From: Clostridia bacterium
GTDB taxonomy: Bacteria; Bacillota; Clostridia; CAKSNL01; HGM11501
NCBI GenBank assembly: GCA_045545475.1
Contig: JAZQAZ010000034.1
Coordinates: 33,287 to 97,286, forward strand
Direction: 5' to 3'
Length of the DNA: 64,000 nt
Under the pieces are notes generated by a model. That model ran no database searches. It was not told the DNA's origin and was given only the letters and a program-made list of their open reading frames with translations. The first letter of the stretch is position 1. Each line of letters begins with the position of its first letter. Below are positions 8,099 through 30,396 of the stretch, piece after piece. The position numbers and the translations under genes are program-made.

Positions 8099-8127
8099 GA
8101 CCTTACAATTTATAAGGAGAGATGACA

Positions 8128-9951
8128 ATGAAAAAGAAATTTTTTGCGGCAATATGTGTTTTTGTGCTTGCCATGGCGGCACTCACTCTTACTTCCTTTG
8201 CGGCAAGAAAGGAGAGTTTGCCCATAACTCTTCGCACAACGGGATATAAAACAGTGAATGAAACGGTAATTACAAGGTTTGAAGTTACCGAAATTGAATC
8301 TTACTACAATGACCAGATACAACTGTGCTTCGAAATGGACAGAATAGTGGTTTCCGGAAGCAACTCAATCAGCATGGAAGTGGACTGCTTCGATGCTGAG
8401 GGCGAATATATAAAAACGGTATACTTAAGTTCATACAGCGATTATATACTGGTACCCGACAATACCGCAACAATTGAACTTAAGGCAGATACCCCTGCAT
8501 CCGACAGCGAAAGCTATGTTTACCGCAAATATGTAGCATTATACAATATTGACGGGGCAACTGCACAGGTTACTAATATACAGGCAGCTACTTATCAGGA
8601 AAACGGATGGCGTACCGCAGCACAGTATAACAATATTAAGAGAACGCTTCCCATTAACCTGGTTTATGATGACGGTGATATTACAACTATAAGTGCATTT
8701 GATATTACAAAAGTAGAAACCGCATGGGATGGAGATCTCAGGCTGAGCTATTCGCTGGAATATGAGTATACAAGAGGATACAGCGGCCCATCTATATACA
8801 TAAGATGTTACAATTCTTCAAGAGAATGTGTTGATACAATGTTAGTTTCGGAGTACGGTTCATATGTGGATGTTCCCTATGATACCACCGATATTGAGCT
8901 GTTTACCAAGTATGGTGCAGCAGACAGCCAGAGCTATCTCATAAGCAATTATTCCACGATGTATTCATCCGACGGAAGAAGCATAGTTGTAAGTGATTTG
9001 CAGATATCTTCCTATGAGGCTGTGGGTTGGGCACTTGCGGTTCCCGTTTACGCTTATGAAAACGGAGAATTTACGAGAATGACTTATATAAGTCCTTATG
9101 ACGTTTCTTCGTGGCAGGCTGTAGGCTGGTACAGCTATGAAGAAACCTGCAATGCCGAAACCTTGTATGCAATGGATGAAAACGGTAAGTTTACGAGAAC
9201 ACTTAAGGTTCCGCAGAGGTTGGTATCTGCATATACGGCGGTTGGTTGGTATACCTATTCTCAGAAAAATGATATTGAAACTGCCGTAACTTTGTACGCA
9301 CCGGATGCAAACGGAAACTTCACAAGAACCATAAGCGTGCCTGCAAAGGATGTTGCCGCATATACGGCGGTTGGTTGGTATACAAAAGAGGAAGCCTTTA
9401 AGAAAACGAGTCTTCCTGTTATATTCTGCAATGCCAATGGCGGAACAATTACATTCAGTAACTTTACGGTTAACGGCGTAAGTAAAGATGATGACGGCAG
9501 AACAAAGATTGAATATGAAATCGGATACACAAATAACAGTAACTCGAATTTTAAGATTTTATATAATCTTTATGATGCGTACGGCAATCTTTACGGGTCC
9601 GTCACGAGCAGTCATACGACAAGAGGCTCAGAAAAGGAAAATTGGACACTCCGAACAGATAGTAAAATTGCAAAAATTGAAATAAAATTAGACGGCGGAG
9701 CAAGTAACAGCCAGACTTATGTATACAGTAATATGATAACAGTATATGCCTCCGACGGAAGAACCATGGAAATTTATGATTTGCAGCTTCCCGTTTACGA
9801 AGCTGTGGGCTGGTACTCATCGCCGGAAGCGGCAAATGCTCCTCCTCCCGGGTCCGAGCCGGAAGAACCCCAGGAGCCGGAAGAACCGGCTGCAGGTTCA
9901 GCCCCCAAAGGTGAAAAGCCTTCCAAGCCCAGCAGACCTCCACGCTCATAA
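8128..9951 (+). CDS. Secreted modular repeat protein with reiterated Y-x-A-V-G-W-Y motifs and a Pro-rich basic tail
   Basis: Signal peptide (KKKFFAAICVFVLAMAALTLTSFA). Three modules of about 130 aa, each ending ..DG(R/A)..V....Q...YEAVGW. Three repeats of about 40 aa (LYA.D.NG.FTRT..VP...V.AYTAVGWY). No family recognised. Confidence 0.7.
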   Translation: MKKKFFAAICVFVLAMAALTLTSFAARKESLPITLRTTGYKTVNETVITRFEVTEIESYYNDQIQLCFEMDRIVVSGSNSISMEVDCFDAEGEYIKTVYLSSYSDYILVPDNTATIELKADTPASDSESYVYRKYVALYNIDGATAQVTNIQAATYQENGWRTAAQYNNIKRTLPINLVYDDGDITTISAFDITKVETAWDGDLRLSYSLEYEYTRGYSGPSIYIRCYNSSRECVDTMLVSEYGSYVDVPYDTTDIELFTKYGAADSQSYLISNYSTMYSSDGRSIVVSDLQISSYEAVGWALAVPVYAYENGEFTRMTYISPYDVSSWQAVGWYSYEETCNAETLYAMDENGKFTRTLKVPQRLVSAYTAVGWYTYSQKNDIETAVTLYAPDANGNFTRTISVPAKDVAAYTAVGWYTKEEAFKKTSLPVIFCNANGGTITFSNFTVNGVSKDDDGRTKIEYEIGYTNNSNSNFKILYNLYDAYGNLYGSVTSSHTTRGSEKENWTLRTDSKIAKIEIKLDGGASNSQTYVYSNMITVYASDGRTMEIYDLQLPVYEAVGWYSSPEAANAPPPGSEPEEPQEPEEPAAGSAPKGEKPSKPSRPPRS

Positions 9952-9994: not shown

Positions 9995-11173
9995 TTACTT
10001 TAATTCTCTTGCACCATCGCCGATATCGAAGATGTAGAAGGATGCTTCATAGCCGATTTTTTCCTTATAAATCTTACCAACGGTTTCGATGAAATTATCT
10101 ATCGCATCATTTTTAACAATGCTTACTGTGCATCCGCCAAAGCCTGCACCTGTCATTCTGCTTCCGATTACGCCATCTACCTTCTGTGCGGTCTCAGCCA
10201 GGGTGTCAAGCTCAACGCCCGTTACCTCGTATAAATCCTTTAAGGAAGCGTGGGATTGATTTAAATACTGACCGAAGGTGGCAATGTCGCCTTTCTTTAA
10301 GGCTTCAACGCTCTTTAATACTCTGTCATCCTCGTAAATTACGTGGGTAACTCTGTTTTTAACGATTTCGTCCTTAATTACATCTTTGTGAGCTTCAAAC
10401 TCCGCAGGTGTGATTTCACCGAGGCAGGTTTTTTCGGGCATCACTTCGTGTAAAAGACGGAAGCCTTCCTCGCACTGACTTCTTCGCTCGTTGTATGCCG
10501 ATGCGCCAAGCTTGTGCTTTTTGTTGGTGTTGGAAAGAACCAACTTGCAGTCGCCGATTTCAGCGGGAACCATTTCACACTCCAATGTATCGCACTTTAA
10601 GAACATGGCCATGTTCTTAACACCGTTTGCCGATGCAAACTGGTCCATAATACCGCAGTTTACGCCGACATACTTGTTCTCGGCACGCTGTCCGATTAAG
10701 GCAAGCTCGGTTTTGTTAGCTTCTTTTCCGCCCATCTCGCCTGAGAAGGTGGAGAAAATCTTTGCTGTTACAACCTCGATTGCGGCAGAGGAAGAAAGAC
10801 CGCTTCCGTGGGGAACGCTGTCCTCATAGAGTAAGTCGGCACCCGTTAAAATGTAGCCGTCCTTCATAAGCTCGCAGAGTACGCCTGCCTGATAGTTGCC
10901 GTAGTCAATGTCCTTGTAGTCGCCGATTTTGTCAAGGTCAAGGGTTACGATTCCGTCTAAATCCGTTGCCTTTAAGCGTACAATTCTGTCCGCTCTTTTT
11001 CTTACCGCAACGGTGCTTTCTGCGGAAATTGCCGCAGGGAAAACGAAACCTCCGTTATAGTCGGTGTGTTCGCCTATCAAATTAACTCGTCCGGGAGAAG
11101 CGAAAAAACGGATTTCGCCGCCCTCACCGTAGATTTTTTCAAACTCTTTTTTAAGTGCACATAAATCTGCCAT
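9995..11173 (-). CDS. galK: Galactokinase
   Basis: GRVNLIGEHTDYNGG (galactokinase signature) and GHMP motif PHGSGLSSSAA. The start MADL.. has RBS aaagga. Confidence 0.93.
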   Translation of the reverse strand: MADLCALKKEFEKIYGEGGEIRFFASPGRVNLIGEHTDYNGGFVFPAAISAESTVAVRKRADRIVRLKATDLDGIVTLDLDKIGDYKDIDYGNYQAGVLCELMKDGYILTGADLLYEDSVPHGSGLSSSAAIEVVTAKIFSTFSGEMGGKEANKTELALIGQRAENKYVGVNCGIMDQFASANGVKNMAMFLKCDTLECEMVPAEIGDCKLVLSNTNKKHKLGASAYNERRSQCEEGFRLLHEVMPEKTCLGEITPAEFEAHKDVIKDEIVKNRVTHVIYEDDRVLKSVEALKKGDIATFGQYLNQSHASLKDLYEVTGVELDTLAETAQKVDGVIGSRMTGAGFGGCTVSIVKNDAIDNFIETVGKIYKEKIGYEASFYIFDIGDGARELK

Positions 11174-11235
11174 AAAAATCATCCTTTCGATCATTTGCTT
11201 TATATTCTATCATAAAACAAGATGATTTACAAGAA

Positions 11236-12768
11236 TTAATTTCTGAAATCAAAAGAAAGTGTGTTTCCGTCGGACTTGATTTCTTTCTCTGAAACGGCAC
11301 AGCCACAGGTAAGCTTAACCTTGTATGAAACGCCCGAAAAGGAAAGTGTAAGTTCCTTTTCGCTTACACTTTTCACTTCATAGGAATGGGGGCATTCGAT
11401 GCCGATTGCATTTTTAAGTGTAAAGGGCATTTTGCCTTCAATTTTCATGCCGCTTTCCGTGAGAGTAATCGTAATGTCTGAAAATTCAGCTTTGGCAGAG
11501 CCGTTGCTCAAATCTGTAAATTTCATTTCGCTATTTTCGGGAAAGCTTCCGTCTTCAAATGTAATAAATCCGCCTGCTCTCACGCCTTTCCCGGTAAAGC
11601 GACAGCCGTCAATAAAGGGAAGTGCCTCGTAAGTTGCACAGTTTTCGGTGCATACGGAATCAAGGAAGGGGTCTTTAAGGCTGTCAGAATAAATGTGAAG
11701 ATCGCGGATACGTACGCCTTTTTCGTCGGAATAAATATTAACTCTGAAAAATTTGCTTGAATACCAGAGGGAATTTTTGCCCTCGTCGTCAAAAGCAGTG
11801 TGCGCCGTAATTGCCGAGGCGGGAGTGTCGGAAAAGGTTTTTTTATACCATCTGCCCGTTTCGCCTGCTGTTTCAACGGTGATTTTTCCCTCCCTCTGAA
11901 GCTTTTCAAAAAGCGGGAACTGATAATTAAGCCCATCTTTCATTTTGCTCCAGCCGAAGGAATTTTCCTGACCTGCCTGGGTATAGCCAAAGGAAAGACA
12001 GTCGCCGTTAAAGTTTTCCTTCATATACCAGTCAATCCATTTTGGGTTTCCGCCGCATCCGGGATATACAGGCTCTAAAGAGATAACGTCCTGGCGATTG
12101 TAGCTTTCTGCATTTTCATCAAGCTTGTAGTCATATTGATAAACAGGGTCCGATCCCAGCATTCTGAATAGGGGCACCGGCAGCATATTTTCCTTATTTA
12201 CAGCAGGAAGGAACACGTTTTTGCGGTTGGGATAATAGCCCTGACCGTAGTATCCGCCCCAGAGGGTGTATCCGTCGGTGCCGAACTGCTCTTTACAGTT
12301 CATAAAAGCATCAATGCCGTAGTGCTCGTTGGCATATACTGCCGTGTGGGAATCAAAAAGCCAGGAGCCGAAGGTTTTGGGATAGCAGCCAAAAACCTCG
12401 TGGAATTTTGAGAAAAGTACATCGATGAGCTTTTCGCGTTCTTCTTTTGTGTAGCCCACGGAAAAGCCTGTATCTGTGTGCCAGTCCCAGGAATAGCGTC
12501 CGCGCCATGTAAGATTTGCCGCTTCAACGTGGGGCTGGGTGATTTCATACCAAACGCCGATTTCAAACTGACCGGGGTCAAGCTCCTTTAAAAGATCCTG
12601 ATAAAAGGGCATAATCAGTGCATCATACTGAAGCAGAAAGGTTGCCTTTAAATTGTGCTTTTTAAGAAGAGAAATCTGTTCCTTTACGGGAGTTTCCAGA
12701 TCCATGGGAAGACGTGGTTCAACGGCTCTTATAAAGTTTACTATATTTACAATTTGTCTTTTTTTCAT
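11236..12768 (-). CDS. Hypothetical cytoplasmic carbohydrate-active-like protein (510 aa)
   Basis: The internal ATG at 12768 has RBS aaaaggag. The track's upstream 66 codons run through the divergent promoter region. Adjacent to galK. No confident family. Confidence 0.5.
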   Translation of the reverse strand: MKKRQIVNIVNFIRAVEPRLPMDLETPVKEQISLLKKHNLKATFLLQYDALIMPFYQDLLKELDPGQFEIGVWYEITQPHVEAANLTWRGRYSWDWHTDTGFSVGYTKEEREKLIDVLFSKFHEVFGCYPKTFGSWLFDSHTAVYANEHYGIDAFMNCKEQFGTDGYTLWGGYYGQGYYPNRKNVFLPAVNKENMLPVPLFRMLGSDPVYQYDYKLDENAESYNRQDVISLEPVYPGCGGNPKWIDWYMKENFNGDCLSFGYTQAGQENSFGWSKMKDGLNYQFPLFEKLQREGKITVETAGETGRWYKKTFSDTPASAITAHTAFDDEGKNSLWYSSKFFRVNIYSDEKGVRIRDLHIYSDSLKDPFLDSVCTENCATYEALPFIDGCRFTGKGVRAGGFITFEDGSFPENSEMKFTDLSNGSAKAEFSDITITLTESGMKIEGKMPFTLKNAIGIECPHSYEVKSVSEKELTLSFSGVSYKVKLTCGCAVSEKEIKSDGNTLSFDFRN

Positions 12769-12964
12769 AAAAAAGTCTCCTTTTCCATTTTTTGCGATTA
12801 TACTGCCGCTCGCATAAAAAGTCAACCGAAAACAGAGAATTGTGTTATTAAATTTAATTTTGTACGATTTTATAATTTTAAAATGTACTTGTATAAAATG
12901 GGAAATTGATGTATAATGAATAAAATATGCAGAGAATGCATTTTGCAAAAAAGGAGGGAGAACC

Positions 12965-13648
12965 ATGCTTCTTGAAGATGAAAAAATTGAAGAGCTTGGG
13001 ATTGAAGGCTTAAGGCTTATTCAATCGGACAAGCTTTTTAAGTACGGCACTGATGCGGTGCTTCTTTCAAAATTCGCCAAGGTGAAAAAAGGTGGCGAGG
13101 TTTTGGACTTTTGCACAGGAAGCGGAATAATTCCTCTCCTTATGTATGCCCGAAACAAGGAATGCTCCTTCGATGCCCTTGAAATAACGGAAAAAGCCTC
13201 GGATATGGCAAGGCGGAGTATGGAATTAAATAACCTTTCCGATAAAATAAAGGTAACAAAGGGCGATATCAAAAACGCCCGTGAAATTTATAAGGGCAGA
13301 CAGTTTGATTTAATAACCTGCAATCCCCCTTATATGGATGCAGGGGGAGGTTTAGTTAATCCCGACACGGATAAAGCCTGTGCAAGGCATGAAATTTTCT
13401 GCACGCTGGAGGATGTAATAAGGGAAGCATCCCACTTAGTGCGTCCCGGCGGATTTTTCTCAATGGTGCATCGTCCACGCCGCTTAACCGACATAATGTG
13501 CTTTATGAGAGAGTATAAGTTAGAGCCGAAACGCCTCACCTTCGTGGCAGACTCACCGGGTAAAGAGCCTGATATGATTTTGATTGAAGGTTTGAAATGC
13601 GGCGGAAAGTTCTTGAAAACAGACATCCTCTATTTAAAGGAGAATTGA
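12965..13648 (+). CDS. trmN6: SAM-dependent N6-adenine methyltransferase, tRNA1(Val) m6A37 type (YfiC/YabB-like)
   Basis: SAM motif VLDFCTGSG and catalytic NPPY (ITCNPPYMD). Sits directly upstream of rsmI, as yabB-yabC does in Bacillus. Confidence 0.75.
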   Translation: MLLEDEKIEELGIEGLRLIQSDKLFKYGTDAVLLSKFAKVKKGGEVLDFCTGSGIIPLLMYARNKECSFDALEITEKASDMARRSMELNNLSDKIKVTKGDIKNAREIYKGRQFDLITCNPPYMDAGGGLVNPDTDKACARHEIFCTLEDVIREASHLVRPGGFFSMVHRPRRLTDIMCFMREYKLEPKRLTFVADSPGKEPDMILIEGLKCGGKFLKTDILYLKEN

Positions 13649-15828: not shown

Positions 15829-15862
15829 GGCATAACGCTTTGGCGTTGTGCCTTTTATTTTT
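15829..15862. repeat. Left copy of a 34-bp perfect direct repeat (orphan copy of the araC-family gene 3' end)
   Basis: ggcataacgctttggcgttgtgccttttattttt is identical to 16407-16440. On the minus strand it reads KIKGTTPKRYA followed by DS*. Confidence 0.9.
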
Positions 15863-16358
15863 ATGTATCGGATAACATGTTGCATATGTCTCTGACAATA
15901 TCATCAATATTTTTTTCTGCTGTAATAGGTGTTTCGTTCAACACATCGGAAAAATCTTTTTCGCGCCACCATCTGCGCATATCTTCCTCACCAAATTCAT
16001 GGCAATTGGATTTTGTCTGATGTCTCTTCAAAGTTTCCTCGAAAGGTAAATCAAAATAGAAAGCGTATATTTCCGAATTATATAGTTTATTGGAGAGTTC
16101 AAATAATGGCTTATACCAATCTGCATTCATTATTCCTTCCAATATAACGATATCGCAATGCTTGTGACCGTATATCAAAAGTTCTTTCATAAGCGGCAGT
16201 GCGAGGGTGTTTTCGCCATCTTTAACTTTAAGCATATCTCTTCTTATTACATCCTGCGAAATAAGCATAGTATTAAATCCGAATCTGTCTTGTAATTCTC
16301 TCGCAATCGTGGATTTTCCGCTGCCTGAATTACCTCGGAGTATAATTAATTTTTTCAT
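15861..16358 (-). CDS. P-loop kinase / AAA-type NTPase (165 aa)
   Basis: Walker A ILRGNSGSGKSTIA close to the N-terminus. Size and layout fit a small-molecule or nucleotide kinase fold. RBS agaggtg. Confidence 0.7.
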   Translation of the reverse strand: MKKLIILRGNSGSGKSTIARELQDRFGFNTMLISQDVIRRDMLKVKDGENTLALPLMKELLIYGHKHCDIVILEGIMNADWYKPLFELSNKLYNSEIYAFYFDLPFEETLKRHQTKSNCHEFGEEDMRRWWREKDFSDVLNETPITAEKNIDDIVRDICNMLSDT

Positions 16359-16394: not shown

Positions 16395-17216
16395 CTAAAT
16401 ATCATTGGCATAACGCTTTGGCGTTGTGCCTTTTATTTTTTTAAAAAGCTGAACGAAATAGGGAACGTCGGAAAAGCCTGAGCCTTCCGCCGCTTCCGAC
16501 ACGGAAGAGCCGTTTTTAAGCATCTTGCATGCCTCGGAAATCCTTACCCCGTTAAGATAGGAAAGGTATGTAATTCCCGCACTTTCCCGAAACTTTGTGC
16601 AGAAATAAAACTTACTGTAGCCCATTTTTTCCGCTATGTCGGAAATAGAAATTTTCTCACGGAAATGAAGCTTGGTATAGTTTATAATTTCCCGAAGCTC
16701 ACTTTCGTCAAAGGCGTTACCCGATGGGAGAACTTCCTCACGGCTGAAGGTGCGAAGATGAGAAAAAAGGGATACGGCAATGCTTGTTGCCGAAAATATA
16801 TCTTCGGCTTTTGCCAAAGCGTTCACAATGGGCAAAATTTCATCAAAGCAGTCGGGATTTACGTCAATTGACATAAGGCTTTTTCCCTCGGATGCCAAAA
16901 GTGCCTCAAAGCTCAAAAAGGGCGAAAAGCCCTCGGGGGAAAGCTTTACGTTTAAGAGATTACCGCTGCTTTTTTTATAGCTCATTGAATGAACTGTTTC
17001 CGGCGGAATATAAAAAACCTGATTGCCCGACAGCTTATAGCGGTGTCCTCCTATAATCACCTCGCCCGTCGCCCCTGAAAAAAGCAAAATCTCAACAGTT
17101 TCCGCATAGTGGGGTGCGACAAGCTCATCACGGTCAAAGGTCGTATAAATCACCGAAAAAGGTATGCTTTTTGAAAAATCTTTATGCTCTTTAAAAGCGG
17201 TGAAAATATTGTTCAT
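16395..17216 (-). CDS. AraC family transcriptional regulator (cupin sensor plus HTH)
   Basis: C-terminal AraC HTH (ISDIAEKMGYSKFYFCTKFRE..G.T...YL). Divergent from the glycyl-radical-enzyme operon. Confidence 0.85.
   Translation of the reverse strand: MNNIFTAFKEHKDFSKSIPFSVIYTTFDRDELVAPHYAETVEILLFSGATGEVIIGGHRYKLSGNQVFYIPPETVHSMSYKKSSGNLLNVKLSPEGFSPFLSFEALLASEGKSLMSIDVNPDCFDEILPIVNALAKAEDIFSATSIAVSLFSHLRTFSREEVLPSGNAFDESELREIINYTKLHFREKISISDIAEKMGYSKFYFCTKFRESAGITYLSYLNGVRISEACKMLKNGSSVSEAAEGSGFSDVPYFVQLFKKIKGTTPKRYANDI
16407..16440. repeat. Right copy of the 34-bp direct repeat (functional 3' end of the araC-family gene)
   Basis: Identical to 15829-15862. Here it encodes KIKGTTPKRYA followed by NDI*. 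Confidence 0.9.
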
Positions 17217-17323
17217 AGCCCCATTATATATTAAATAACAAAATATTGCAACATTTTTCCTTAATATTTCCCATTGAAACGGGACTTTTTTCGCACTATA
17301 ATATAATAAAAGGAGGTTTTATT

Positions 17324-18427
17324 ATGATTAAAGCTGTAATTATTGGTTGTGCACATATGCACGTTAACGAAATTGCCTTATATATAACCGAGGCGGAGGG
17401 GATAAATCTGGTTGCCGCCGCCGACCTTGTGCCGGATACCGCAGAAATCGTAAAGGCGAGATACACAAGGGACTGGAATAAGGAAAACATTAAAAATAAC
17501 TATTGTGACAACATTTACGACGACTATATTAAAATGCTTGATACTGAAAAGCCTGACTGGGCGTTTATCTTAACGGAGAACAAAAACAAGCCTGCCGTGG
17601 TGGAAGAGTGTGCAAAAAGGGGAATTAACGTAAGCATCGAAAAGCCCATTGCCGTAAGCTATGAAGAGGCATTAAAAATCGAAGAATCCGTTAATAAGTA
17701 CGACATCGAGGCAATTGTAAACTGGCCCGTAATCTGGCGCCCCTATATGTATGAAATGATAAATGCATATAGACTCGGTCTGGTGGGAGACCTTAAAAAG
17801 CTTTACTACATAAACGGTCACACAGGCCCCCTTGGTGCAGGTGCAAAGCACAGAGGCGTTTCCGACACCGCCGAGGAAATGACGGACGAGGCAAGAAGCA
17901 AAACCTGGTGGTATCAGAAGAATCAGGGCGGCGGTGCCATCCTTGACATTCTGTGCTACGGTGCAATGTATTCTGCACTATTACAGGAAGGCGATGCAAA
18001 AAGCGTTTATGCCTATTCCGACAACTTAAATACGCCCTACTCCGATGCGGAGGACAACGTGAGTGCGGTAATCAAATACGATAACACCTACACCGTTGCC
18101 GAGGGAACATGGACAATTCCTCAGCTTGTTCTTCCTGGCGGCCCCGTACTTATGTGCGAAAAGGGTGCAATTTACACTAAAAAGGAAGACGGTGTATGCA
18201 CCGTTCTCGCTGTTGATATGTACGGAAATCCCTTGGAAATTCCCAAATGCGAATTTCCAAAGTATATGAAAAACATTGCAGAGCATCTTACTTATGTAAA
18301 GAAAACGGGTTCGCCCCTTACAAAGGAAGTAACCCTTTCACAGAATATGAAGGTTATGGCAATTTTAGATGCGGCGAAAAAATCCACCGAATCGGGATGC
18401 GAGGAAAAGGTAGTATGCAGACCGTAA
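17324..18427 (+). CDS. Gfo/Idh/MocA family NAD(P)-dependent oxidoreductase
   Basis: N-terminal Rossmann segment MIKAVIIGCAHMHVNE and the EKP motif (VSIEKPIAVS). ATG 17324 follows aaaggagg. Confidence 0.85.
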   Translation: MIKAVIIGCAHMHVNEIALYITEAEGINLVAAADLVPDTAEIVKARYTRDWNKENIKNNYCDNIYDDYIKMLDTEKPDWAFILTENKNKPAVVEECAKRGINVSIEKPIAVSYEEALKIEESVNKYDIEAIVNWPVIWRPYMYEMINAYRLGLVGDLKKLYYINGHTGPLGAGAKHRGVSDTAEEMTDEARSKTWWYQKNQGGGAILDILCYGAMYSALLQEGDAKSVYAYSDNLNTPYSDAEDNVSAVIKYDNTYTVAEGTWTIPQLVLPGGPVLMCEKGAIYTKKEDGVCTVLAVDMYGNPLEIPKCEFPKYMKNIAEHLTYVKKTGSPLTKEVTLSQNMKVMAILDAAKKSTESGCEEKVVCRP

Positions 18428-19194
18428 AAGGAATCGTCGCTGACATTCAGCGCTCATCCATCCACGACGGGCCGGGGATAAGAACCACCGTGTTCTTAAA
18501 GGGCTGTCCCTTAAACTGCAGTTGGTGTCACAACCCCGAATGTATAAAAAAAGAGCCCGAAACCCTTTTCTATCCCGAAAAGTGCATCGGCTGTAATATG
18601 TGCGATAAGGGTTGTTTTTCCGGGGCAAAAGTCATTTGCGGAAAGGAAATGACTTCTTACGAGGTTTTAGCCGAGGTTATGCTTGATAAGGCATATTATA
18701 AAAACGATGGCGGCGTCACTTTCTCGGGGGGCGAGCCTATGCTGCAAAAGGAATTTGTGGCGCACCTTTCCGACCTTTGTCACGAAAACGGAATCAACAC
18801 AGCCATTGAAACATCAATGTATATTTTCGACAGCGACGTTTTATCGAAAATGGACTACATAATGTGCGACGTTAAAATATGGGATGACGAAAAGCACAAA
18901 AAATACACCGGCGTGTCGGGCGAAAAAATAAGGGAAAACATTAAAAAAGCGGATAAGCTTGGTATCCCGATTTTAATAAGAACGCCCATAATACCGGGAA
19001 TTAATGACACGGTTGATGAAATTAAAAACATAAAAAGCTTCGTTATGTCCCTTGAAAATGCGGCAGGTTATGAGCTTTTGCCCTATCATCCGCTGGGAGA
19101 CGGGAAGAGGGCGGCGTTGGGACTTATCGCACCCGAATTTAACATTCCCGAAAAAGAAAAAATGGAGGAATTAAAAAGCTATGCTCACATATAA
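18415..19194 (+). CDS. Glycyl-radical enzyme activating protein (radical SAM)
   Basis: SIHDGPGIRTTVFLKGCPLNCSWCHNPE (CX3CX2C) plus an auxiliary CIGCNMCDKGC cluster motif. Overlaps the upstream gene by 13 nt and the downstream gene by 14 nt. Confidence 0.9.
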   Translation: MQTVKGIVADIQRSSIHDGPGIRTTVFLKGCPLNCSWCHNPECIKKEPETLFYPEKCIGCNMCDKGCFSGAKVICGKEMTSYEVLAEVMLDKAYYKNDGGVTFSGGEPMLQKEFVAHLSDLCHENGINTAIETSMYIFDSDVLSKMDYIMCDVKIWDDEKHKKYTGVSGEKIRENIKKADKLGIPILIRTPIIPGINDTVDEIKNIKSFVMSLENAAGYELLPYHPLGDGKRAALGLIAPEFNIPEKEKMEELKSYAHI

Positions 19195-21397
19195 AGACAG
19201 ACTTTCAAGTATGAGGGAAACAAAAATCCGTCATACTCTCTTAAAAAGAAAGCAAAACGGCTTTACCGATTTAGACGATTTCGGCACAGTGCCCATTTCC
19301 GAGGGCTATGCCGTAACACCCTGGTACAACAGCGAAAACGGAAGCTTTTACGGACTTGACGGAATGTGTGAAAACTTCTGCCGTGTACTTGATGCCCACG
19401 AGCCATATGTTGACCCCATGGAAATGCTTTGCGGTCGCTGGAGAGATATGCTTGTAAACTACAGAGGCGACCTTCACTATATGCCCGACTGGCTTAAGAA
19501 CAACCTTAAAAATCTTGAGTTTATCAAAAACGGTGCCACAAATCAGTGGAGTAAGCGTTGGGACGAACAGCGTTTTCCCTATGACCACTTAAAGCCCTGG
19601 CAGGAAAAGTACAACATCACCACCGGCATTGACGGGGATGCCCACTTTGCCTGCGACTATAAAATCGGCTTTGAGCTTGGCTTTGGCGGTTTCCTTGACA
19701 AAATTAAAAAATACCGCGAAATAAATCCCGATAAAAAGGCGTTTTACGATGCGGAAGAGCGATGCGTTCTTGCGATAGTTGCCTTTATCGACCGCCATAT
19801 TGCAAAAATCGGAGAGATGATAAAAACGGAAAACCGCTCCGAAATAAAGGAAAATCTTGAAACGATGAAAAAGGTCTGTGAAAATATTCGCCTGGGTGCA
19901 CCGCAAACCTTCCACGAGGCTTGTCAATGGACGGCGTTTTTCAACTGCGCATCCCGAATTTACACCCGTGACGGTGCAGGCTTTCAGCTTGACGGGCTTT
20001 TATATCCCTTCTACGAAAAGGACGTAAAGGACGGAATAATAGACGATGAAACAGCAAAATTCTTAATTGCAAACCTTCTTTTAATTGATCCCCATTACTA
20101 TCAGATTTCGGGCGTTGACGAAAATGATTGCGATATGACAAATAAGCTTTCCTACCTTATTCTTGACGCGGCAGATTCCATAAACATCGCCTGCAACTTA
20201 ACCGTAAGGGTGCATCCTGCCTGCGATAAGGAGTTTCTTAAGAAAGCGGTTTCCTGCCTTCTTAAAAATAAAAACGGATGGCCCAGATTCTGTAACGATA
20301 AAGCTCTTTGCGAGGGCTATATGAGAAACGGCGTGGACAAGAAAACCGCCCGTGAAAGAATTGCCGTGGGCTGTAACTGGATGTGCGTGCCCGGCAAGGA
20401 ATTCCCCATGAATGACACGGTAAAAATCAACGTGGCAAAGGTTATGGAAGAAGCCTTAAAGGATATGAAATCGGAAAAGGAAAAATCCACCACCCGACTT
20501 TTTGAAATTTACAATGAGCATCTTAAAAAAGCGGTTGAAATCACCGCCGAGGGCATAAATCTTCATATTGACCACGCCCACGACGTAACCCCCGAGCTTA
20601 TTATGAATTTAATGATGCATAACACTTTGGAAAAAGGCCTTGATATATCAGAGTGTGCCTCTCTTTACACCGTGGGCATTGACGGAGCGGGCCTTGCTGT
20701 GGTTGCCGATTCCTTCGGTGCTATGGAAAGCCGCATCGAAAAGGAAAAACTTCTTACCTGGGATGAGCTTTACGGGGCACTGGAGAGTAATTTTGCCGAT
20801 GAGCGAATCCGCCTTATGTTAAATTCAGCACCCCGCTACTGCGGCGGCGAAACGGTGTCGGATATTTGGGCAAATCGTCTTACAGAGTCCTGGGTTAAAA
20901 CCGTCAAGGGGCAGAAAATGCCTGAGGGCAGGTGTTTAGTTCCCGGTTGGTTTTCCTGGAGCAGAACCATTGAATATGGTTCTAAGGTTGGCGCAACCCC
21001 CAACGGCAGAAGGGCAGGGGAGCCCATTTCCCATGGTGCAAACCCCAATCCCGGCTTCCGTCGTGACGGTGCCGTTACCGCGCAGAGCGAGGGCATCGCA
21101 AAAATTCAGTGCGGCTACGGAAACACAGCACCGTTGCAGCTTGAGTTTGATCCCAATCTTGCAAATGACGAGGCGGGAATTGACACGGTTACAAGCTTAA
21201 TTGAAGCACATTTTGAAAACGGCGGAACATTAATAAACATCAACATCCTTGATAAGGATAAGCTTCTTGCCGCCAACGAAAACCCCGACCTTTACCCCGA
21301 CCTGGTTGTAAGAGTAACAGGCTTCACCGCATATTTTGCAAGCCTTTCACCACGTTTCCGTCAGCTTGTGGTAGACAGGTTCTTAGAAGGTATGTAA
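19181..21397 (+). CDS. Glycyl radical enzyme (PFL-fold), uncharacterised subclass, 738 aa
   Basis: C-terminal fingerprint VVRVTGFTAYF (Gly714). Candidate thiyl Cys398 in AVGCNWMCVPGKE lies 316 residues upstream, comparable to PFL Cys419-Gly734. A dedicated activase lies upstream. Confidence 0.85.
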   Translation: MLTYKDRLSSMRETKIRHTLLKRKQNGFTDLDDFGTVPISEGYAVTPWYNSENGSFYGLDGMCENFCRVLDAHEPYVDPMEMLCGRWRDMLVNYRGDLHYMPDWLKNNLKNLEFIKNGATNQWSKRWDEQRFPYDHLKPWQEKYNITTGIDGDAHFACDYKIGFELGFGGFLDKIKKYREINPDKKAFYDAEERCVLAIVAFIDRHIAKIGEMIKTENRSEIKENLETMKKVCENIRLGAPQTFHEACQWTAFFNCASRIYTRDGAGFQLDGLLYPFYEKDVKDGIIDDETAKFLIANLLLIDPHYYQISGVDENDCDMTNKLSYLILDAADSINIACNLTVRVHPACDKEFLKKAVSCLLKNKNGWPRFCNDKALCEGYMRNGVDKKTARERIAVGCNWMCVPGKEFPMNDTVKINVAKVMEEALKDMKSEKEKSTTRLFEIYNEHLKKAVEITAEGINLHIDHAHDVTPELIMNLMMHNTLEKGLDISECASLYTVGIDGAGLAVVADSFGAMESRIEKEKLLTWDELYGALESNFADERIRLMLNSAPRYCGGETVSDIWANRLTESWVKTVKGQKMPEGRCLVPGWFSWSRTIEYGSKVGATPNGRRAGEPISHGANPNPGFRRDGAVTAQSEGIAKIQCGYGNTAPLQLEFDPNLANDEAGIDTVTSLIEAHFENGGTLININILDKDKLLAANENPDLYPDLVVRVTGFTAYFASLSPRFRQLVVDRFLEGM

Positions 21398-21415
21398 TAA
21401 GGAGAGGTAAAAAAG

Positions 21416-21515
21416 AGATTCTTCCTCGGCATAGCCTTCATCAGAATGACATAGGTGTACTATGCTGTCATTCTGATAGAGGGGATTCTGAAAGCCCCGA
21501 AGGAAGAATCTGAAA
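21416..21515. repeat. 100-bp MITE-like hairpin element
   Basis: Terminal inverted repeats agattcttcctcgg / ccgaaggaagaatct. Inner inverted repeat atcagaatgaca / tgtcattctgat. Flanked by direct repeats aaggaga(g/t)gtaaaaaa(a)g at 21399-21415 and 21516-21533. Confidence 0.65.
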
Positions 21516-21801
21516 AAGGAGATGTAAAAAAAGTCCAGACCGCAAAAAGGCAAATAAATTAGTGGGTTGGGCAAAGTTACAAACTCTATGTTGTAAAATA
21601 GTGTTGAAAAATCGCATTCCTGCGATTTTTCTTCATTTTGAGCCTTTTTGCTACGAACAAACTTCACCCTCAACGTATCTATATACGCCTTCGGGTAACT
21701 TTCGAAAAGTCTGTAAACAGACTTTCTCAATTCAGTTTGTCCGTTCTGAAGCATTTTTTCCTATCTCCTGAAAAAGGGGCTGTAATTATTTTACAGCCCC
21801 T

Positions 21802-24636
21802 TTATTTTACAAGATATGCACTTATTTCCTTTACGGTAATTGTACCTGCACCGGTATCTGTTTTGGGTGTAACGGATATTTTCTTAACACAGATTGGTTT
21901 TGTGAAAGTGTAAAGGGATGCACCTGTTGTTATGTCATAGTCGCTGACTCCAACGGACAGTTTATTTCCCTCCGAGTCATATATGTGAACTTCCATTTTC
22001 ATATATTCATCTGATAAGACTGCCGAAATGCTTACACCATCTATCACAAGACCTTCTTTGCCGGGAAACTCCACCATAAGAGTTTTGTCATGAAGAAAAT
22101 CAATGACTTCTGCACTGTCTGTTTCATCAAGAACTGCGGCGGCGGGAAGGTAGGAGGTGTCCTTTTCTATCTTATAGGCGGACCACCCTGTTTTGTTTAC
22201 GAAAGCCTTTTCTCCTGTGGAAGCGTTAAGTGTTGCTATAGTTTCGTCGTTATTTTTTGCTGTGAAGAGACCGCCTATGGCAATGCCACCAAATACGATA
22301 ATGGCAATAGAGGCGATGAGAACCATGAACTTGAAGTTTTTTCCGGAAACTATTTTATTGAAAACACGTTTAATCGGGGAATAATGCTCGCTTACTATTC
22401 CGGATATAACTTTTTTGAATTCCAAAGTGAGGTCTTTATATTCAGGGTGAAGTACCGATACATTATCAAGCTCTTTTTTCAGCTTTTTTATATTACGGTC
22501 ATTGGTTAAAAGTGTATTGTGACGAATGAAAAATTTACGCAGTGACTCATAAAATGATGTGAGGACGGTAAAGTCTGTTCTGATTCCGGGGATATCCCTT
22601 ACAATACGCCCGTTTTTGGTCATAGGTGGAATAAAGAGGTTTGATGATAAAAACCACTCTATGAATTCAAAGGGAGGAATTGATTGCTCCTTATCTATAA
22701 ATTCCAGAATGCTGTCAAAATCCACCTGAGCACGGGAATCCTTTGAACCGTAAATATAAAACAAAATTATGTAAACAATGCGTCTCGGAGAGTCCTTCTT
22801 TTCCTTTATACAACGGAGAAGTAGGGCTTTGAGCAAATCTTCTTTAGCTTTACCGTCTGATTGAGAGTCTGCAAAGTTTGCCCTTATGTTTTCAAAACCG
22901 AAGGCATCATAGTGAACAAATGACATGGCCATATCGTTGGTTAATGCCATTATTTCCTTTGCAGCCATTGCGATTTTGTGTTTGACAGTACATTCTTCGT
23001 TGATTGCTTCTCCGTCGGCAAGGGGGAATTTTTCAATTTTTGCAAGGTTGAGCTCCGAAATATCCAGCGTGGTCATATAGTTTTCAAGAGCATAACGATA
23101 AATTACGTTAAAGAGGGAGGCGTTATCAGGATGCTTGTCTTTAAGGGCAAGACACTTCTCCTCAAGATACTTAACTGCCTCAAAGCGGTCGCCCGAAGTA
23201 TCATAAAGTTGCATTGCTCTTTGCTGTATCATTGATATAATAAGCTCGCTGTCGGCAAGCTGAGGCATTTCGGAAAAAATACTGTCCGCAAATTCCATAA
23301 CCGAATGAACGGTTTTACGCTGTTCGATAAGATAGGTGAAATAGCGTGTTATTAAGCGGTTGCTTTTTGCCATTTTATGCTCTATTAATTTGTTATACAG
23401 CTCGCTGCTTCCTCTGGATGAGTCGATGTGCATGAAAAGAATTTCATTTTCCGAGGATTTAAGGCAGGAATCTATATCCAGCGTTATAAGGTCATAAAGT
23501 TCGTCTTTCTGCTTTTCTGGACAAAGGTCGTATGTTGAAACCAGTCTTTTGAGAATTTCCGGAGGGATCAGTATTTCCTTGCTTTTAATATAGCGTCTGT
23601 AAAGCTTTATAAATTCAGAATAAGAGGCGAGCAGACCTGGTTTGTCATCAGAACGCAAAAATTCTGCAAAAACTGTTGTAATTCTGCCGAGTCTTTGAGG
23701 AAGTGTTTCCTCGTTATCCTTTAAGTTATATATATAGGCAAGGTCGTTATAAAAACGCAGTGACAGAATTTTTTCTGTGGGAAAAGCACGTTCAGCTTCT
23801 CTGGCAAAAGCAAAAAAGTCTGAAAGTGAGGTGCCTGTGGCAAAGCTTGTTGATACAAAGGAAAGGTATTCCTCAGAAAGAGCTTCCTTTGTGTCAGGAA
23901 CCTGAGAACGGTTTTTCTTGCTGAAATTGAATATATAATCCTTTGAAGCGTCATAGGATTCGATTGAAAATCTTCCGCTGGGCGAGACTTTATCGTCGGG
24001 AATAAAGTAGATATTTATTTCGGGGCGAATCTCTGTTTCTCCGAAAAGAGTGCAAAAGCCGGTTTTGCTTCTCATAAAAAAGGGAAGGTATTCGTAGAGT
24101 CCGTACATTATGGCACATATTTTATCAATGTCTGTTTTTCTGGGAAGAGCAATGAAAATTTTTCTGTTTTGCTCAACAGATGCGAAAACAGCGGCGAGAA
24201 GTGCCATGTATTCTGTATGAGACATGTTAAGGGAGGCAAAAGCTTTTTTCAGGAAAGTGCTGCGTTCTTTTGTAAAAGGAAGTTCCTTTAGCGACGGCAG
24301 ATATGGGTTTTTTGCATCATCGGGTTCAGGGAGAGCCAAAATGGCAGCAGGGTCGGAAACAACGGCAGATACATCATCCTGAGGAATGATGTAATTATGG
24401 ATGCAGGAATAAGGTTCTGTAGCCGATTTCATTCCCGTGCCGATTAAAAGACCGCCACCCGATAAAGGAATGAAGCTTTTGTATCCGGGCGAGTCTTTGC
24501 CCTCTAGATAAAAGAGATCCAGCATGGAGTAAAAAGGACGGATTGCATTGTCGATATATTCTTCGGTTAACGTTGTGGATTTTGAAGAAGTTTCAAGTCC
24601 AATTCCCGTTTTTATGTAAATTTGCTGTTCTATCAT
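21802..24636 (-). CDS. Large orphan single-pass membrane protein (944 aa)
   Basis: Strong RBS aaaaaggagg. About 740 cytoplasmic residues, one TM helix (FKFMVLIASIAIIVFGGIAIGGLF), then a beta-rich exodomain of about 160 aa ending ..GAGTITVKEISAYLVK. No family recognised. Confidence 0.7.
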   Translation of the reverse strand: MIEQQIYIKTGIGLETSSKSTTLTEEYIDNAIRPFYSMLDLFYLEGKDSPGYKSFIPLSGGGLLIGTGMKSATEPYSCIHNYIIPQDDVSAVVSDPAAILALPEPDDAKNPYLPSLKELPFTKERSTFLKKAFASLNMSHTEYMALLAAVFASVEQNRKIFIALPRKTDIDKICAIMYGLYEYLPFFMRSKTGFCTLFGETEIRPEINIYFIPDDKVSPSGRFSIESYDASKDYIFNFSKKNRSQVPDTKEALSEEYLSFVSTSFATGTSLSDFFAFAREAERAFPTEKILSLRFYNDLAYIYNLKDNEETLPQRLGRITTVFAEFLRSDDKPGLLASYSEFIKLYRRYIKSKEILIPPEILKRLVSTYDLCPEKQKDELYDLITLDIDSCLKSSENEILFMHIDSSRGSSELYNKLIEHKMAKSNRLITRYFTYLIEQRKTVHSVMEFADSIFSEMPQLADSELIISMIQQRAMQLYDTSGDRFEAVKYLEEKCLALKDKHPDNASLFNVIYRYALENYMTTLDISELNLAKIEKFPLADGEAINEECTVKHKIAMAAKEIMALTNDMAMSFVHYDAFGFENIRANFADSQSDGKAKEDLLKALLLRCIKEKKDSPRRIVYIILFYIYGSKDSRAQVDFDSILEFIDKEQSIPPFEFIEWFLSSNLFIPPMTKNGRIVRDIPGIRTDFTVLTSFYESLRKFFIRHNTLLTNDRNIKKLKKELDNVSVLHPEYKDLTLEFKKVISGIVSEHYSPIKRVFNKIVSGKNFKFMVLIASIAIIVFGGIAIGGLFTAKNNDETIATLNASTGEKAFVNKTGWSAYKIEKDTSYLPAAAVLDETDSAEVIDFLHDKTLMVEFPGKEGLVIDGVSISAVLSDEYMKMEVHIYDSEGNKLSVGVSDYDITTGASLYTFTKPICVKKISVTPKTDTGAGTITVKEISAYLVK

Positions 24637-24755: not shown

Positions 24756-24831
24756 GCTGGTGTGGCTCAGTCGGTAGAGCAATTGATTCGTAATCAATAG
24801 ATCGTCGGTTCAAGTCCGATCACCAGCTCCA
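24756..24831 (+). tRNA. tRNA-Thr (anticodon CGT), CCA encoded
   Basis: Cloverleaf folded by hand: acceptor GCTGGTG/CACCAGC, D arm GCTC..GAGC, anticodon arm ATTGA-TTCGTAA-TCAAT, T arm GTCGG-TTCAAGT-CCGAT, discriminator T, CCA. Confidence 0.9.
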
Positions 24832-28541: not shown

Positions 28542-29417
28542 TTATTTGTTCGAAATATATATTCCCGTTGTAATGAGCAAAAATGATATAATATATTGCA
28601 TTTTAAATATATTCTCGCCTAAAATCAAAGCTCCAAATATACATGCAAACACCGGTTCTGCAAATTTTACGATAAATAGTTTTGAAAGCTCCCCGTTTTT
28701 CACCACGGAAAACCAGATGCAATAGCTGAAAATTGATGCAAAACATATGTAAACCATGACAAATGCAGATTTGCTAAAGGCAAAGTCCATCCCCCCGCCC
28801 AGGAGATTGCCTATAATCAATAAAACTATACCGCCAAACAATTGTGATATTCCTGTTGATGTAATCGGTTTTACTGTTTGAAATACCTTTTTACTAATTA
28901 CATTTGAAAAAACGGTGCAAAAAGACGCTGCAATAATTAGTGCATCGCCAATATTAAAACTTATTCCACCAAAATTTGCATTTATCGCAACAATACCCAC
29001 AAATCCTATAAGTACGCCAATCAGTTTTTTTGCAGTAAGCTTGTCTTCTTTAAAAAACATAGAGGAAAAGCAAACATAAAATAATACACCAACTTGTTTT
29101 AATATTGCAGTTTTAGAACTATCTGTGAGCTTCAATGCACTATATGTAAAGCTATAATGCAAGATTATTGCAAAAAGTCCTGATAAAAGAACAGGAACTA
29201 ATGCATTTTTTGCATCTTTAAAGGAAACCTTATCTGTAATAAAAGTATACAAGCATATAAGTGCACCGCATATAGTAAACCTAACTCCGGCGAAAAACAG
29301 AATATCTCCGGTTGTTACAATGTTGTATGCACCATAACCGAGCTTTACCATAGGAAAAAGCGTTCCCCAAAGGAGCATTACCAAAAGTGCATAAAGCATA
29401 GATTTATTTTTACTCAT
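28542..29417 (-). CDS. EamA/DMT family transporter (10 TM)
   Basis: Two EamA-like five-helix halves. Very AT-rich. 8-nt overlap with the upstream gene. Confidence 0.8.
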   Translation of the reverse strand: MSKNKSMLYALLVMLLWGTLFPMVKLGYGAYNIVTTGDILFFAGVRFTICGALICLYTFITDKVSFKDAKNALVPVLLSGLFAIILHYSFTYSALKLTDSSKTAILKQVGVLFYVCFSSMFFKEDKLTAKKLIGVLIGFVGIVAINANFGGISFNIGDALIIAASFCTVFSNVISKKVFQTVKPITSTGISQLFGGIVLLIIGNLLGGGMDFAFSKSAFVMVYICFASIFSYCIWFSVVKNGELSKLFIVKFAEPVFACIFGALILGENIFKMQYIISFLLITTGIYISNK

Positions 29418-30396
29418 TGCACACTCTCAAAACCACTTTGCCTATGTTTTCTCCTCTTTCTAAAATATCCAAAGCCTCGTTTGCCTCTTCCAAAGGCAGA
29501 ACCTTATATATGGATGGCTTCATTTCGCCTTTTTCAATTTTTGGCCATACTTTTTCTACAAGTTCAGCAAGAAGCAAAGCTTTTTCTTCGCTTGTGCGTT
29601 TTCTGAGCATGCTTCCAACAAGGTGAAGCCCTTTTGTAAGAAGAGGTCTTAACATAATATTTGTCTCTGTACCCGCAAGAGTTGAAATAACTACCCAATA
29701 TCCGCCTTCTGCCATATAAGGCAGGCTTTTACCAAGGGTTTCTCCGCACAGACAATCCATTGACATATTGACAGGAGTACCTTTTAATTCTTCTTGTTTT
29801 AAAAATTCCGAAACATCCTGCTTGGTGGAAATTATAACCACATCCGCACCAAGTGATACAATTTTTTCGGCAATTTCATCAGACAAAACGGAAGTAATAA
29901 CTCTTGCGCCAAAAGCTTTTGCCATAGGAATTGCAACAGATGCAAGGCCACTGGCGCCGGCAGGAATAAAAGCGGTTTGCCCCACTTTAAGATGCCCCTC
30001 CCAAAATAAATTCAAATATGAAGTTGCATATGCTTCAGGCAAGGTCGCCGCTTCTTCAAAGGATAAATTTTTTGGCATTGGCATAACCATTCCTTCCGGG
30101 GCACAAACATACTGTGCATAACCGCCTCCGCCTAAAAGGGCACAAACAGAATCGCCGATTTTAAATCTTCCCTTTTGTTTTGCGGTCTCTCCCATAGCGT
30201 CAACAGTCCCTGATACTTCAAGACCGGGCCACTCGGGCCAACCCTTTGGAGACGGATATGTCCCCTTCTTTTGCAAAAGGTCAGCACGATTTATGCCAAT
30301 CGCCTTGACTTTTATACGTATTTCATCGTCACCTGCATTTGGTATTTCCGCGTCTGTCAATAACAGCTTTTCTTCTTTAACAGTCATTGCTTTCAT
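29410..30396 (-). CDS. Quinone oxidoreductase-like MDR family NAD(P)H dehydrogenase
   Basis: IRIKVKAIGINRADLLQKKGTYP and the Rossmann segment IPAGASGLASVAIPMAKAFGA. The start MKAMTV.. has RBS aaagga. Confidence 0.8.
   Translation of the reverse strand: MKAMTVKEEKLLLTDAEIPNAGDDEIRIKVKAIGINRADLLQKKGTYPSPKGWPEWPGLEVSGTVDAMGETAKQKGRFKIGDSVCALLGGGGYAQYVCAPEGMVMPMPKNLSFEEAATLPEAYATSYLNLFWEGHLKVGQTAFIPAGASGLASVAIPMAKAFGARVITSVLSDEIAEKIVSLGADVVIISTKQDVSEFLKQEELKGTPVNMSMDCLCGETLGKSLPYMAEGGYWVVISTLAGTETNIMLRPLLTKGLHLVGSMLRKRTSEEKALLLAELVEKVWPKIEKGEMKPSIYKVLPLEEANEALDILERGENIGKVVLRVCNE

Follow-up and report, generated by a model that had tools for sequence, protein, structure and literature searches.

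A deep-branching, gut-prevalent clade of predicted glycyl radical enzymes with tryptophan in the catalytic loop, and a close family encoded beside a sugar-type oxidoreductase

We analyzed a 64,000-nucleotide stretch of a gut Clostridia genome (contig JAZQAZ010000034.1; hereafter, the window) and characterized a four-gene module in it, comprising a divergent AraC-type regulator, a 367-amino-acid (aa) Gfo/Idh/MocA oxidoreductase (GFO366), a 259-aa activase (AE), and a 738-aa glycyl radical enzyme (GRE). Judged by its sequence, the GRE represents an uncharacterised, deep-branching, and gut-prevalent clade with an altered catalytic loop. The reading we prefer, at somewhat under even odds (roughly 45%), is that the module would be an AraC-controlled anaerobic unit for modifying sugars or cyclitols, in which the GRE acts as a radical C-O-cleaving enzyme coupled to an NAD-dependent ketoreductase or dehydrogenase. 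An initial annotation, made from the DNA letters, had placed the four open reading frames (ORFs) where we also found them, and Pfam and NCBIfam gave the same identities for all four proteins.

Membership of the GRE in the PFL-like superfamily (IPR004184) followed from the presence of both the barrel domain (PF02901, 6.6e-92) and the C-terminal glycyl radical domain (PF01228, 5.9e-16). Every NCBIfam GRE model fell below its cut-off. Specifically, TIGR01774, which describes the PFL2-3/glycerol dehydratase subfamily, scored 290 bits against a cut-off of 678, the HypD, HpfG, HpsG, CutC, and PRK09983 models scored 150-228 bits against cut-offs of 1000-1109, and TIGR01255, for pyruvate formate-lyase (PFL), scored 75.2 bits against 994.2. 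Identity to any characterised GRE family was ~20-23%, so that the protein did not cluster tightly with one of them.

The translation contains the glycyl fingerprint RVTGFTAYF with Gly714, and the Cys loop reads A-V-G-C398-N-W400-M-C402-V-P-G-K, both as first annotated. HMMER alignments placed C398 on the catalytic Cys of PflD (8yjo) and of glycerol dehydratase (GDH; 1r8w), in agreement with its earlier designation as the probable thiyl residue, and paired A-V-G-C398-N-W with V-V-G-C-V-E of Escherichia coli PflD and with I-I-G-C433-V-E435 of Clostridium butyricum GDH. In these alignments, Trp400 sits at the position of the CXE glutamate (the Glu of GCVE); the +2 Glu is thus missing, as had been noted, and so is an adjacent Cys-Cys pair, the loop reading G-C398-N with its second Cys at +4. 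Neither the alignments nor a structural model revealed an alternative canonical Cys loop. The distance from Cys to Gly is indeed 316 residues, but the exact match to PFL that had been claimed does not hold, because C419 and G734 of E. coli PFL are 315 apart.

The AlphaFold model of the GRE, built on 26 sequences, was confident (pLDDT 91.6, pTM 0.92) and showed both residues at hairpin tips, C398 in hairpin 394-402 and G714 in hairpin 709-718. Foldseek searches with the model returned PflD, GDH, propanediol dehydratase, HypD, and CutC, all at TM ~0.83-0.84 and 19-23% identity. Five residues, C398, W400, D412, E472, and G714, were invariant in 200 close homologues. The enzyme looks catalytically competent, given that the invariant Gly714 and Cys398 are predicted to occupy the two hairpin tips of a confident model and that the coupled, cognate activase scores above its cut-off.

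Other active-site positions were aligned as well, pairing His155 with GDH His164, Asp412 with GDH Asp447, and Tyr307 with GDH Tyr339, while the loop carrying GDH Ser282 was shortened and GDH Tyr640 corresponded to Phe591. Asp412 occupies the Cys+14 position, which is also Asp in PflD. The first-strand His and the Asp at Cys+14 found in GREs that act on diols and sugars are therefore both present (H155 and D412); the CXE motif of the 1,2-eliminases and isomerases (glycerol and propanediol dehydratases, HypD, CutC, IslA, HplG, PflD, and YbiW) is not, being replaced by C398-N-W400. In the diol- and sugar-acting enzymes, the residues equivalent to GDH His164 and Asp447 contact substrate hydroxyls.

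Relatives of the GRE, sought among 1.84 billion cluster representatives, formed a gradient of identity from 55% down to ~26%. The +2 Trp was retained in all relatives of ~695-775 aa, and the more distant, longer proteins had GCVE. A neighbour-joining tree of 99 sequences set the 27 Cys-x-Trp proteins apart from all others as an exclusive clade, and no split among the PFL2-like sequences sampled was deeper than this one. C398 and W400 were invariant in all 27 members, with loop variants GCNWM, GCHWF, GCFWY, GCQWY, and GCPWY. Across the sampled sequences, then, the Trp at +2 is a hallmark of the whole clade and not of this gene alone.

Several further features accompany the Trp. Glu472 was present in 100% of the clade vs 3% of CXE enzymes and Asp412 in 100% vs 32%, His155 was 88% conserved, and Arg259, Pro651, and Thr713 were conserved. 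Additionally, the clade has Asn621 in place of Ser in the S-P motif (NP for SP), Q-x-E in place of N-x-K near residue 655, and P-E-(L/I) in place of P-x-P-F. A deletion of 15-23 residues precedes strand beta3, and the loop before the G-R-x-D motif is shorter. These deletions explain the short length of the GRE relative to eliminase-type enzymes that had been remarked on, which amounts to ~40-70 residues in comparison to PflD and YbiW. The second loop Cys fared differently. The Cys402 annotated in this gene is present in 98% of 200 close-family sequences, but elsewhere in the clade the position is A, S, N, G, or V, so that a general catalytic role for Cys402 is improbable. Judging from these patterns, what sets the enzyme apart is the Trp, found throughout the clade together with the rest of the signature, rather than the +4 Cys. 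A PFL-like or ribonucleotide reductase-like role for Cys402 as a second catalytic thiol was rejected, since its conservation ends with the close family. One clade member from the representative search (P0127, 1052 aa) is a natural fusion with an N-terminal radical S-adenosylmethionine (SAM) activase and a C-terminal GRE.

A June 2026 review recognizes seven GRE classes and notes that whole GRE clades are still without an assigned function. According to this review, two loop cysteines occur in PFL and TdcE alone, whereas CXE is retained by all eliminases and isomerases, and its Glu binds the substrate in every characterised one. The same Glu deprotonates the substrate hydroxyl in YbiW, in PflD, and in the updated glycerol dehydratase mechanism, for which the role of GDH His164 is also given. 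Gln484 is described as essential in phenylacetate decarboxylase, and by our reading of the numbering this is the Cys+2 residue. No Cys-x-Trp class appears in the review, nor in a 2024 paper on aminoacyl radical enzymes, and full-text literature searches turned up nothing tying a GRE to Gfo/Idh/MocA partners or to a Cys-x-Trp loop. The aminoacyl radical enzymes, in which Ala, Ser, or Thr replaces the radical Gly, were excluded as an identity for our protein, Gly714 being present and invariant.

Among characterised enzymes, PflD was the best match of the GRE in both sequence and fold (E = 2.4e-56; TM 0.84), at ~23% identity. PflD and YbiW are GRE isomerases that open the rings of 1,5-anhydromannitol-6-phosphate and 1,5-anhydroglucitol-6-phosphate (PDB 8yjo, 8id0, 8id7), and they resemble our GRE in their PFL2-like fold, in having one catalytic Cys, at the tip of its loop, with Asp at Cys+14 and a first-strand His, and in a sugar context. 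PflD and YbiW keep the CXE motif, with its Glu deprotonating the C2 hydroxyl, where this GRE has Trp, and they have a loop before beta3 that it lacks. Moreover, they act on phosphorylated substrates and have aldolase partners, whereas the module has no kinase, phosphotransferase system, or aldolase and its family has Gfo/Idh/MocA oxidoreductases instead. Glycerol dehydratase and 1,2-propanediol dehydratase (PDB 1r8w, 5i2a, 9rco) were similarly close in fold (TM 0.83), aligned over residues 151-731, and likewise have an adjoining activase of the PFLE_PFLC type. However, GDH Glu435, the proposed base, is Trp400 here, and the module is without microcompartment genes and without Pdu/Dha-type aldehyde or alcohol dehydrogenases.

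The activase scored 269.6 bits with TIGR02494 (curated cut-off 174), and both of its motifs were as annotated, namely the radical SAM motif C31-x3-C35-x2-C38 (CPLNCSWC) and a CIGCNMCDKGC insert. Six cysteines of the insert (C43, C57, C60, C63, C67, and C75) were 88-100% conserved in 75 homologues, a number that would be enough for about one auxiliary cluster. The close-family activases were short (255-259 aa) with a single Cys-rich insert. Those of distant Cys-x-Trp GREs (L009, L011, L095) were 296-300 aa with double-ferredoxin matches, which suggests that one auxiliary cluster was lost in the close-family activase lineage.

GFO366 carries both the N- and C-terminal GFO_IDH_MocA domains (PF01408 at 46.6 bits, cut-off 24; PF22725 at 38.1 bits, cut-off 27), and its AlphaFold model (pLDDT 92.1) confirmed the two-domain fold. 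Its nearest folds were sugar-ring oxidoreductases, at TM 0.72-0.76 and 13-18% identity, including Thermotoga TM0425, 1,5-anhydrofructose reductase, the DgpA C-glycoside oxidases, aldose-aldose oxidoreductase, GFOR, RgNanOx, NAD-dependent glycosidases, GenD2, and KanD2. The 1,5-anhydrofructose reductase belongs to an anhydro-sugar metabolism related to that of PflD and YbiW. In sequence, the similarity was more distant, with phmmer comparisons against PDB sequences reaching E ~1e-4 at best and all NCBIfam equivalog models far below cut-off.

The invariant residues of GFO366 were G8, H11, and H13, E106-K107-P108, G202-G203-G204, D208, and Y212. The EKP motif, the GGG-x3-D-x3-Y segment, and an acidic residue following strand beta2 (D34) are shared with the sugar-ring oxidoreductases (2glx, DgpA 9m37/9m3d, 5a03, GFOR, RgNanOx 6z3c, and inositol 2-dehydrogenase), but the glycine-rich loop is not. 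It is G-C/F-A/S-H-M-H, invariant in the family, and retains only the first Gly of GxGxxG (G8-C-A-H11-M-H13). D34 suggests NAD rather than NADP as the cofactor.

We then considered how widely the system is distributed. More than 120 clusters (90% identity) were at least 79% identical to the query GRE. The few with a source name were annotated solely as formate acetyltransferase or PFL family protein and came under Clostridia, Monoglobaceae, Lachnospiraceae, and one isolate, Qingrenia yutianensis, so that the clade has a member in a cultured organism. A scan of one genome per GTDB species gave 557 related stretches, for the best 80 of which we compiled taxonomy and host. These 80 were 74-99% identical to the query; each came from a Clostridia assembly of gut or rumen origin, in almost every case a metagenome-assembled one, and the hosts included humans (Hadza among them) and ruminants. 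Their taxa included Oscillospiraceae, Lachnospiraceae, Acutalibacteraceae, Ruminococcus, Faecalimonas, and Tyzzerella, and one bin was labelled Selenomonadales. Median identity was 80% for the GRE, 58% for the activase, and 52% for GFO366. Some metagenome-assembled genomes had two copies of the GRE operon (L016/L036, L026/L051, L045/L070), in which the GREs were 79-90% identical and each copy had a different upstream set of Gfo/Idh/MocA and isomerase genes.

Gene order was surveyed as well, as the initial annotation had proposed, by clustering the ORFs of 93 fetched loci and counting over the 78 close-family loci that had sufficient upstream sequence. The order GFO366-AE-GRE was found in 65/78 loci. 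The activase adjoined the GRE in 73, and in 65 no more than one gene separated GFO366 from the GRE downstream of it. One or more Gfo/Idh/MocA genes were nearby in 73, further ones beside GFO366 being usual, and an AraC-family gene was present in 61. The minimal layout, AraC / GFO366 / AE / GRE, is the one in this window. Recurrent, longer layouts were AraC / GFO433 / Hyi-like TIM-barrel isomerase / GFO371 / GFO366 / AE / GRE, then AraC / GFO365 / GFO366' / GFO371 / GFO366 / AE / GRE, and AraC / GFO371 / GFO334 / AE / GRE, the last often followed by an FAD-dependent oxidoreductase. The extra operon genes matched solely generic models, for sugar or inositol dehydrogenases and for hydroxypyruvate or 2-oxo-tetronate isomerases, all below cut-off.

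More distant clade members lacked the Gfo/Idh/MocA gene and had other neighbours. A 50%-identical member followed a CUT2-type sugar ABC transporter and preceded a ROK gene, a 38%-identical member adjoined an AraC regulator with a periplasmic (sugar-)binding-protein domain, and a 30%-identical member was located among an Inos-1-P-synthase-like gene, a short-chain dehydrogenase/reductase-type epimerase, beta-helix proteins, and a CUT1 ABC transporter. For a 55%-identical member, a PFK-family gene was the sole notable neighbour. Members at 38-55% identity had no Gfo/Idh/MocA neighbour. Taken with the fold of GFO366, the conserved neighbourhoods fit the sugar or polyol pathway that had been suggested for the module.

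The genes of known GRE eliminases commonly adjoin one for a dehydrogenase acting on the carbonyl product, as with glycerol dehydratase and 1,3-propanediol dehydrogenase or HypD and pyrroline-5-carboxylate reductase. The gene architecture, the fold, the mapping of the motifs, the clade signature, and the conserved context are shown by the analysis. We infer which class of substrate is used, that a C-O bond is cleaved, which way the dehydrogenase step runs, and what Trp400 and Glu472 do; the chemistry, specifically, is proposed on the basis of the GRE/activase pair, the retooled Cys loop, the retained His and Asp, the carbohydrate context, and the sugar-ring oxidoreductase partner. In the proposed sequence of events, the activase, using SAM and a reduced [4Fe-4S] cluster, would place a radical on Gly714, from which it would move to Cys398. 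The substrate would be neutral and hydroxylated, for instance a pyranose, an anhydro-hexitol, or an inositol-type cyclitol. The Cys398 thiyl would then abstract H from one of its ring carbinol carbons, and the neighbouring C-O bond would be cleaved in a dehydration or a ring-opening isomerisation. His155 would serve as proton donor and Asp412 would hold a hydroxyl, as in glycerol dehydratase and PflD/YbiW. The product radical would regain H from Cys398, giving a carbonyl product.

GFO366, with NAD(H), would interconvert a ring hydroxyl and a ketone. By the parallel with other GRE eliminases and their product reductases, it would most likely reduce the carbonyl product of the GRE and less likely prepare its substrate. 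In other genomes, the extra Gfo/Idh/MocA paralogues and the Hyi-like isomerase might epimerise or funnel related stereoisomers into one GRE substrate, and such a scheme of many inputs to a common substrate fits the conserved GRE, the diverging activase and GFO366, and the variable upstream gene sets. The invariant Trp400 probably lies stacked against the ring and alters the shape of the pocket, from which the loop before beta3 is also missing, and the clade-invariant Glu472 is a candidate substitute base.

Several points weigh against C-O cleavage of a sugar or cyclitol. Absent here is the Glu with which every characterised eliminase and isomerase deprotonates the substrate hydroxyl, and therefore the canonical ketyl-assisted C-O cleavage cannot be assumed; the clade must use another base, a substrate that needs none, or different chemistry. 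By homology, the region of residue 472 does not correspond to any known active-site strand. Across the 93 loci clustered, the close-family operon had no conserved kinase, aldolase, or transporter, which makes the metabolic purpose less clear. Additionally, the close-family pocket, aromatic-rich at predicted positions (W400, F168, W590, F591, and W593), would also suit a non-sugar substrate, and the literature searched yielded no experimental data on any member of the clade.

A rather unlikely alternative, though the one that survives best, is a radical reaction outside the known GRE classes, in which GFO366 would first oxidise a ring hydroxyl and the GRE would then cleave a C-C bond of the resulting keto-sugar or inosose, contract its ring, or rearrange or epimerise it. 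Such a scheme would account for the dispensability of a hydroxyl-deprotonating Glu. It would agree with the replacement of the CXE Glu in every clade member, together with the beta3 deletion, PE(L/I), NP, QxE, and R259, and with the depth of the clade among PFL2-like sequences. The coupling of GFO366 directly upstream also points this way, as do those of its fold relatives that oxidise sugar C-OH groups and so enable later bond breaking (DgpA, NAD-dependent glycosidases, and RgNanOx). However, the clade members at 38-55% identity that have no Gfo/Idh/MocA neighbour imply that pre-oxidation is not a general requirement, the retained His155 and Asp412 are typical of C-O-cleaving enzymes, and such chemistry is without precedent or direct evidence.

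We consider it improbable that the enzyme acts outside carbohydrate metabolism altogether, taking up a small aromatic or hydrophobic molecule in its aromatic-lined pocket much as arylacetate decarboxylases or X-succinate synthases do, with the oxidoreductases serving another part of the pathway. The pocket aromatics of the close family would be in keeping with this, and phenylacetate decarboxylase also lacks the +2 Glu, having CxQ. Yet of these aromatics, all but W400 are not conserved across the clade, and the context is consistently one of sugar transporters, sugar regulators, and sugar-type oxidoreductases. Identification as a decarboxylase or an X-succinate synthase itself was rejected, for the similarity to these enzymes is much weaker than to PflD and GDH, there are no small subunits nearby, and the context is wrong.

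The name in the databases implies a pyruvate or 2-ketoacid formate-lyase, which is very improbable. PFL and TdcE do belong to the same superfamily, share the PFL-like Pfam domain, and have a similar Cys-to-Gly spacing (315 vs 316), and the source annotations call the protein formate acetyltransferase; but the adjacent Cys-Cys pair, used by PFL and TdcE alone (June 2026 review), is missing, the TIGR01255 score is far below its cut-off, PFL structures align with the C-terminal third only (E = 2e-22), similarity beyond the glycyl radical domain is very weak, and there are no CoA-related partners. Just as hard to credit is a decayed or non-catalytic paralogue whose odd loop, missing a catalytic residue of related classes, reflects loss of function, in view of the ~80% identity across many Clostridia families, the five residues invariant in 200 sequences, the dedicated activase adjoining the GRE, the intact reading frame, and the translational coupling of the gene.

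Beyond the C-O cleavage that we prefer, and more tentatively, the Cys-x-Trp enzymes as a whole may constitute a further functional class of GRE, deep-branching and prevalent in gut and rumen. It is possible, if doubtful, that this class performs carbohydrate or cyclitol radical chemistry without a Glu base, in obligate tandem with a dedicated Gfo/Idh/MocA partner, through a reaction that would be new for GREs. A keto-sugar or inosose might, for instance, be rearranged or undergo C-C cleavage, or sugars might serve as an electron sink in a reductive dehydroxylation.

The features of the module are collected in Table 1.

Table 1. Features of the four-gene module and its flanking control and 3' regions; positions count from the first letter of the window.
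Feature	Position	Strand	Evidence
AraC/XylS-family regulator, 273 aa	16395..17216	-	Pfam HTH_18 2.4e-17, HTH_AraC 1.1e-13
Divergent control region, 107 bp	17217..17323	.	Back-to-back promoter-like sites and dehydrogenase ribosome-binding site
Gfo/Idh/MocA oxidoreductase GFO366, 367 aa	17324..18427	+	PF01408 6.9e-12, PF22725 1.8e-09
GRE activase (radical SAM), 259 aa	18415..19194	+	TIGR02494 269.6 bits vs cut-off 174
GRE of the Cys-x-Trp clade, 738 aa	19181..21397	+	PFL-like and Gly_radical domains
Cys loop codons, A395-V-G-C398-N-W400-M-C402-V-P-G-K406	20363..20398	+	Alignment to PflD/GDH
Gly loop codons, R711-V-T-G714-F-T-A-Y-F719	21311..21337	+	Sequence read; G714 invariant
Structured 3' region: long hairpin 21416-21511, then terminator-like hairpin with T-run 21606-21631	21416..21631	+	

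The gene junctions bore out the translational coupling of the trio. The activase ATG at 18415 precedes the dehydrogenase stop at 18427, giving a 13-nt overlap, and the GRE ATG at 19181, behind a GGAGGA site, gives a 14-nt overlap with the activase stop at 19194. For the dehydrogenase, the start is most likely the ATG at 17324, which has a ribosome-binding-like AAGGAGG upstream, rather than the first in-frame TTG at 17246.

The regulator combines an N-terminal cupin-like sensor with a C-terminal double helix-turn-helix (HTH) and is divergently transcribed. HTH_18 scored 63.4 bits and HTH_AraC 51.4 bits, AraC_binding was borderline at 21.2 bits (cut-off 21.1), and the best NCBIfam matches, RhaS/AraC, were far below cut-offs. 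Two promoter-like sites, which are consensus matches only, face away from each other in the control region: TTGAAA-17-TATAAT at 17274-17302 (+), matching 11/12 consensus positions, and TTGCAA-17-TATAAT at 17251-17223 (-), matching 10/12.

Directly 3' of the GRE stop is a long, near-perfect hairpin of ~95 nt (21416-21511), followed by a terminator-like stem and T-run. The 3' region (243 nt) had an RNA fold of -78.7 kcal/mol (z = -6.6), and it may act as a terminator, stabilise the RNA, or mark a recombination boundary. No Rfam family reached its gathering score in the module, leaving no Rfam-described cis-regulatory RNA as a candidate there; the sole matches in the window at that threshold were to tRNA and the ribosomal protein L10 leader (24756-24828, 50177-50298), outside the module.

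The AraC-GFO366-activase-GRE block (window 16407-21518) was 95% nucleotide-identical to related metagenome contigs (L005/L015, also L014 and L040). This identity breaks off just beyond the AraC stop at one end and at 21518 at the other end, with differing flanks outside these limits. In the relatives, an aldo-keto-reductase/Fe-S gene follows the GRE, and in the window the 3' side is occupied by a 944-aa gene with a GAP1-M match (21802-24636, minus strand). The window also has an AAA_33 kinase-like gene at 15861-16358 that the relatives lack. The module behaves as a unit inside a variable neighbourhood.

Elsewhere in the window, an EamA-family transporter gene followed by four consecutive ORFs of ~340-350 aa was found at 28542-33475 on the minus strand. 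The two of these four that were scanned are zinc-type alcohol/polyol dehydrogenases, and the region may be another polyol or sugar-alcohol cluster. Finally, two ORFs, at 8122-9951 (+, 609 aa) and 11236-12966 (-, 576 aa), had no Pfam match at E <= 0.001 and flank a GHMP galactokinase gene at 9995-11194 (-).

GREs drive gut microbial reactions that affect the host, among them the formation of trimethylamine, p-cresol, skatole, and H2S and the use of hydroxyproline. The Cys-x-Trp clade is large, extremely conserved, and gut- and rumen-wide, yet without the residue on which the accepted eliminase/isomerase mechanism depends. The system is compact, consisting of three genes and a regulator, and its presence in the cultured Qingrenia yutianensis makes it directly testable. 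Assignment of the substrate would reveal a widespread anaerobic transformation of carbohydrates or cyclitols and would also probe whether bond cleavage by a GRE is possible when the CXE glutamate is missing.

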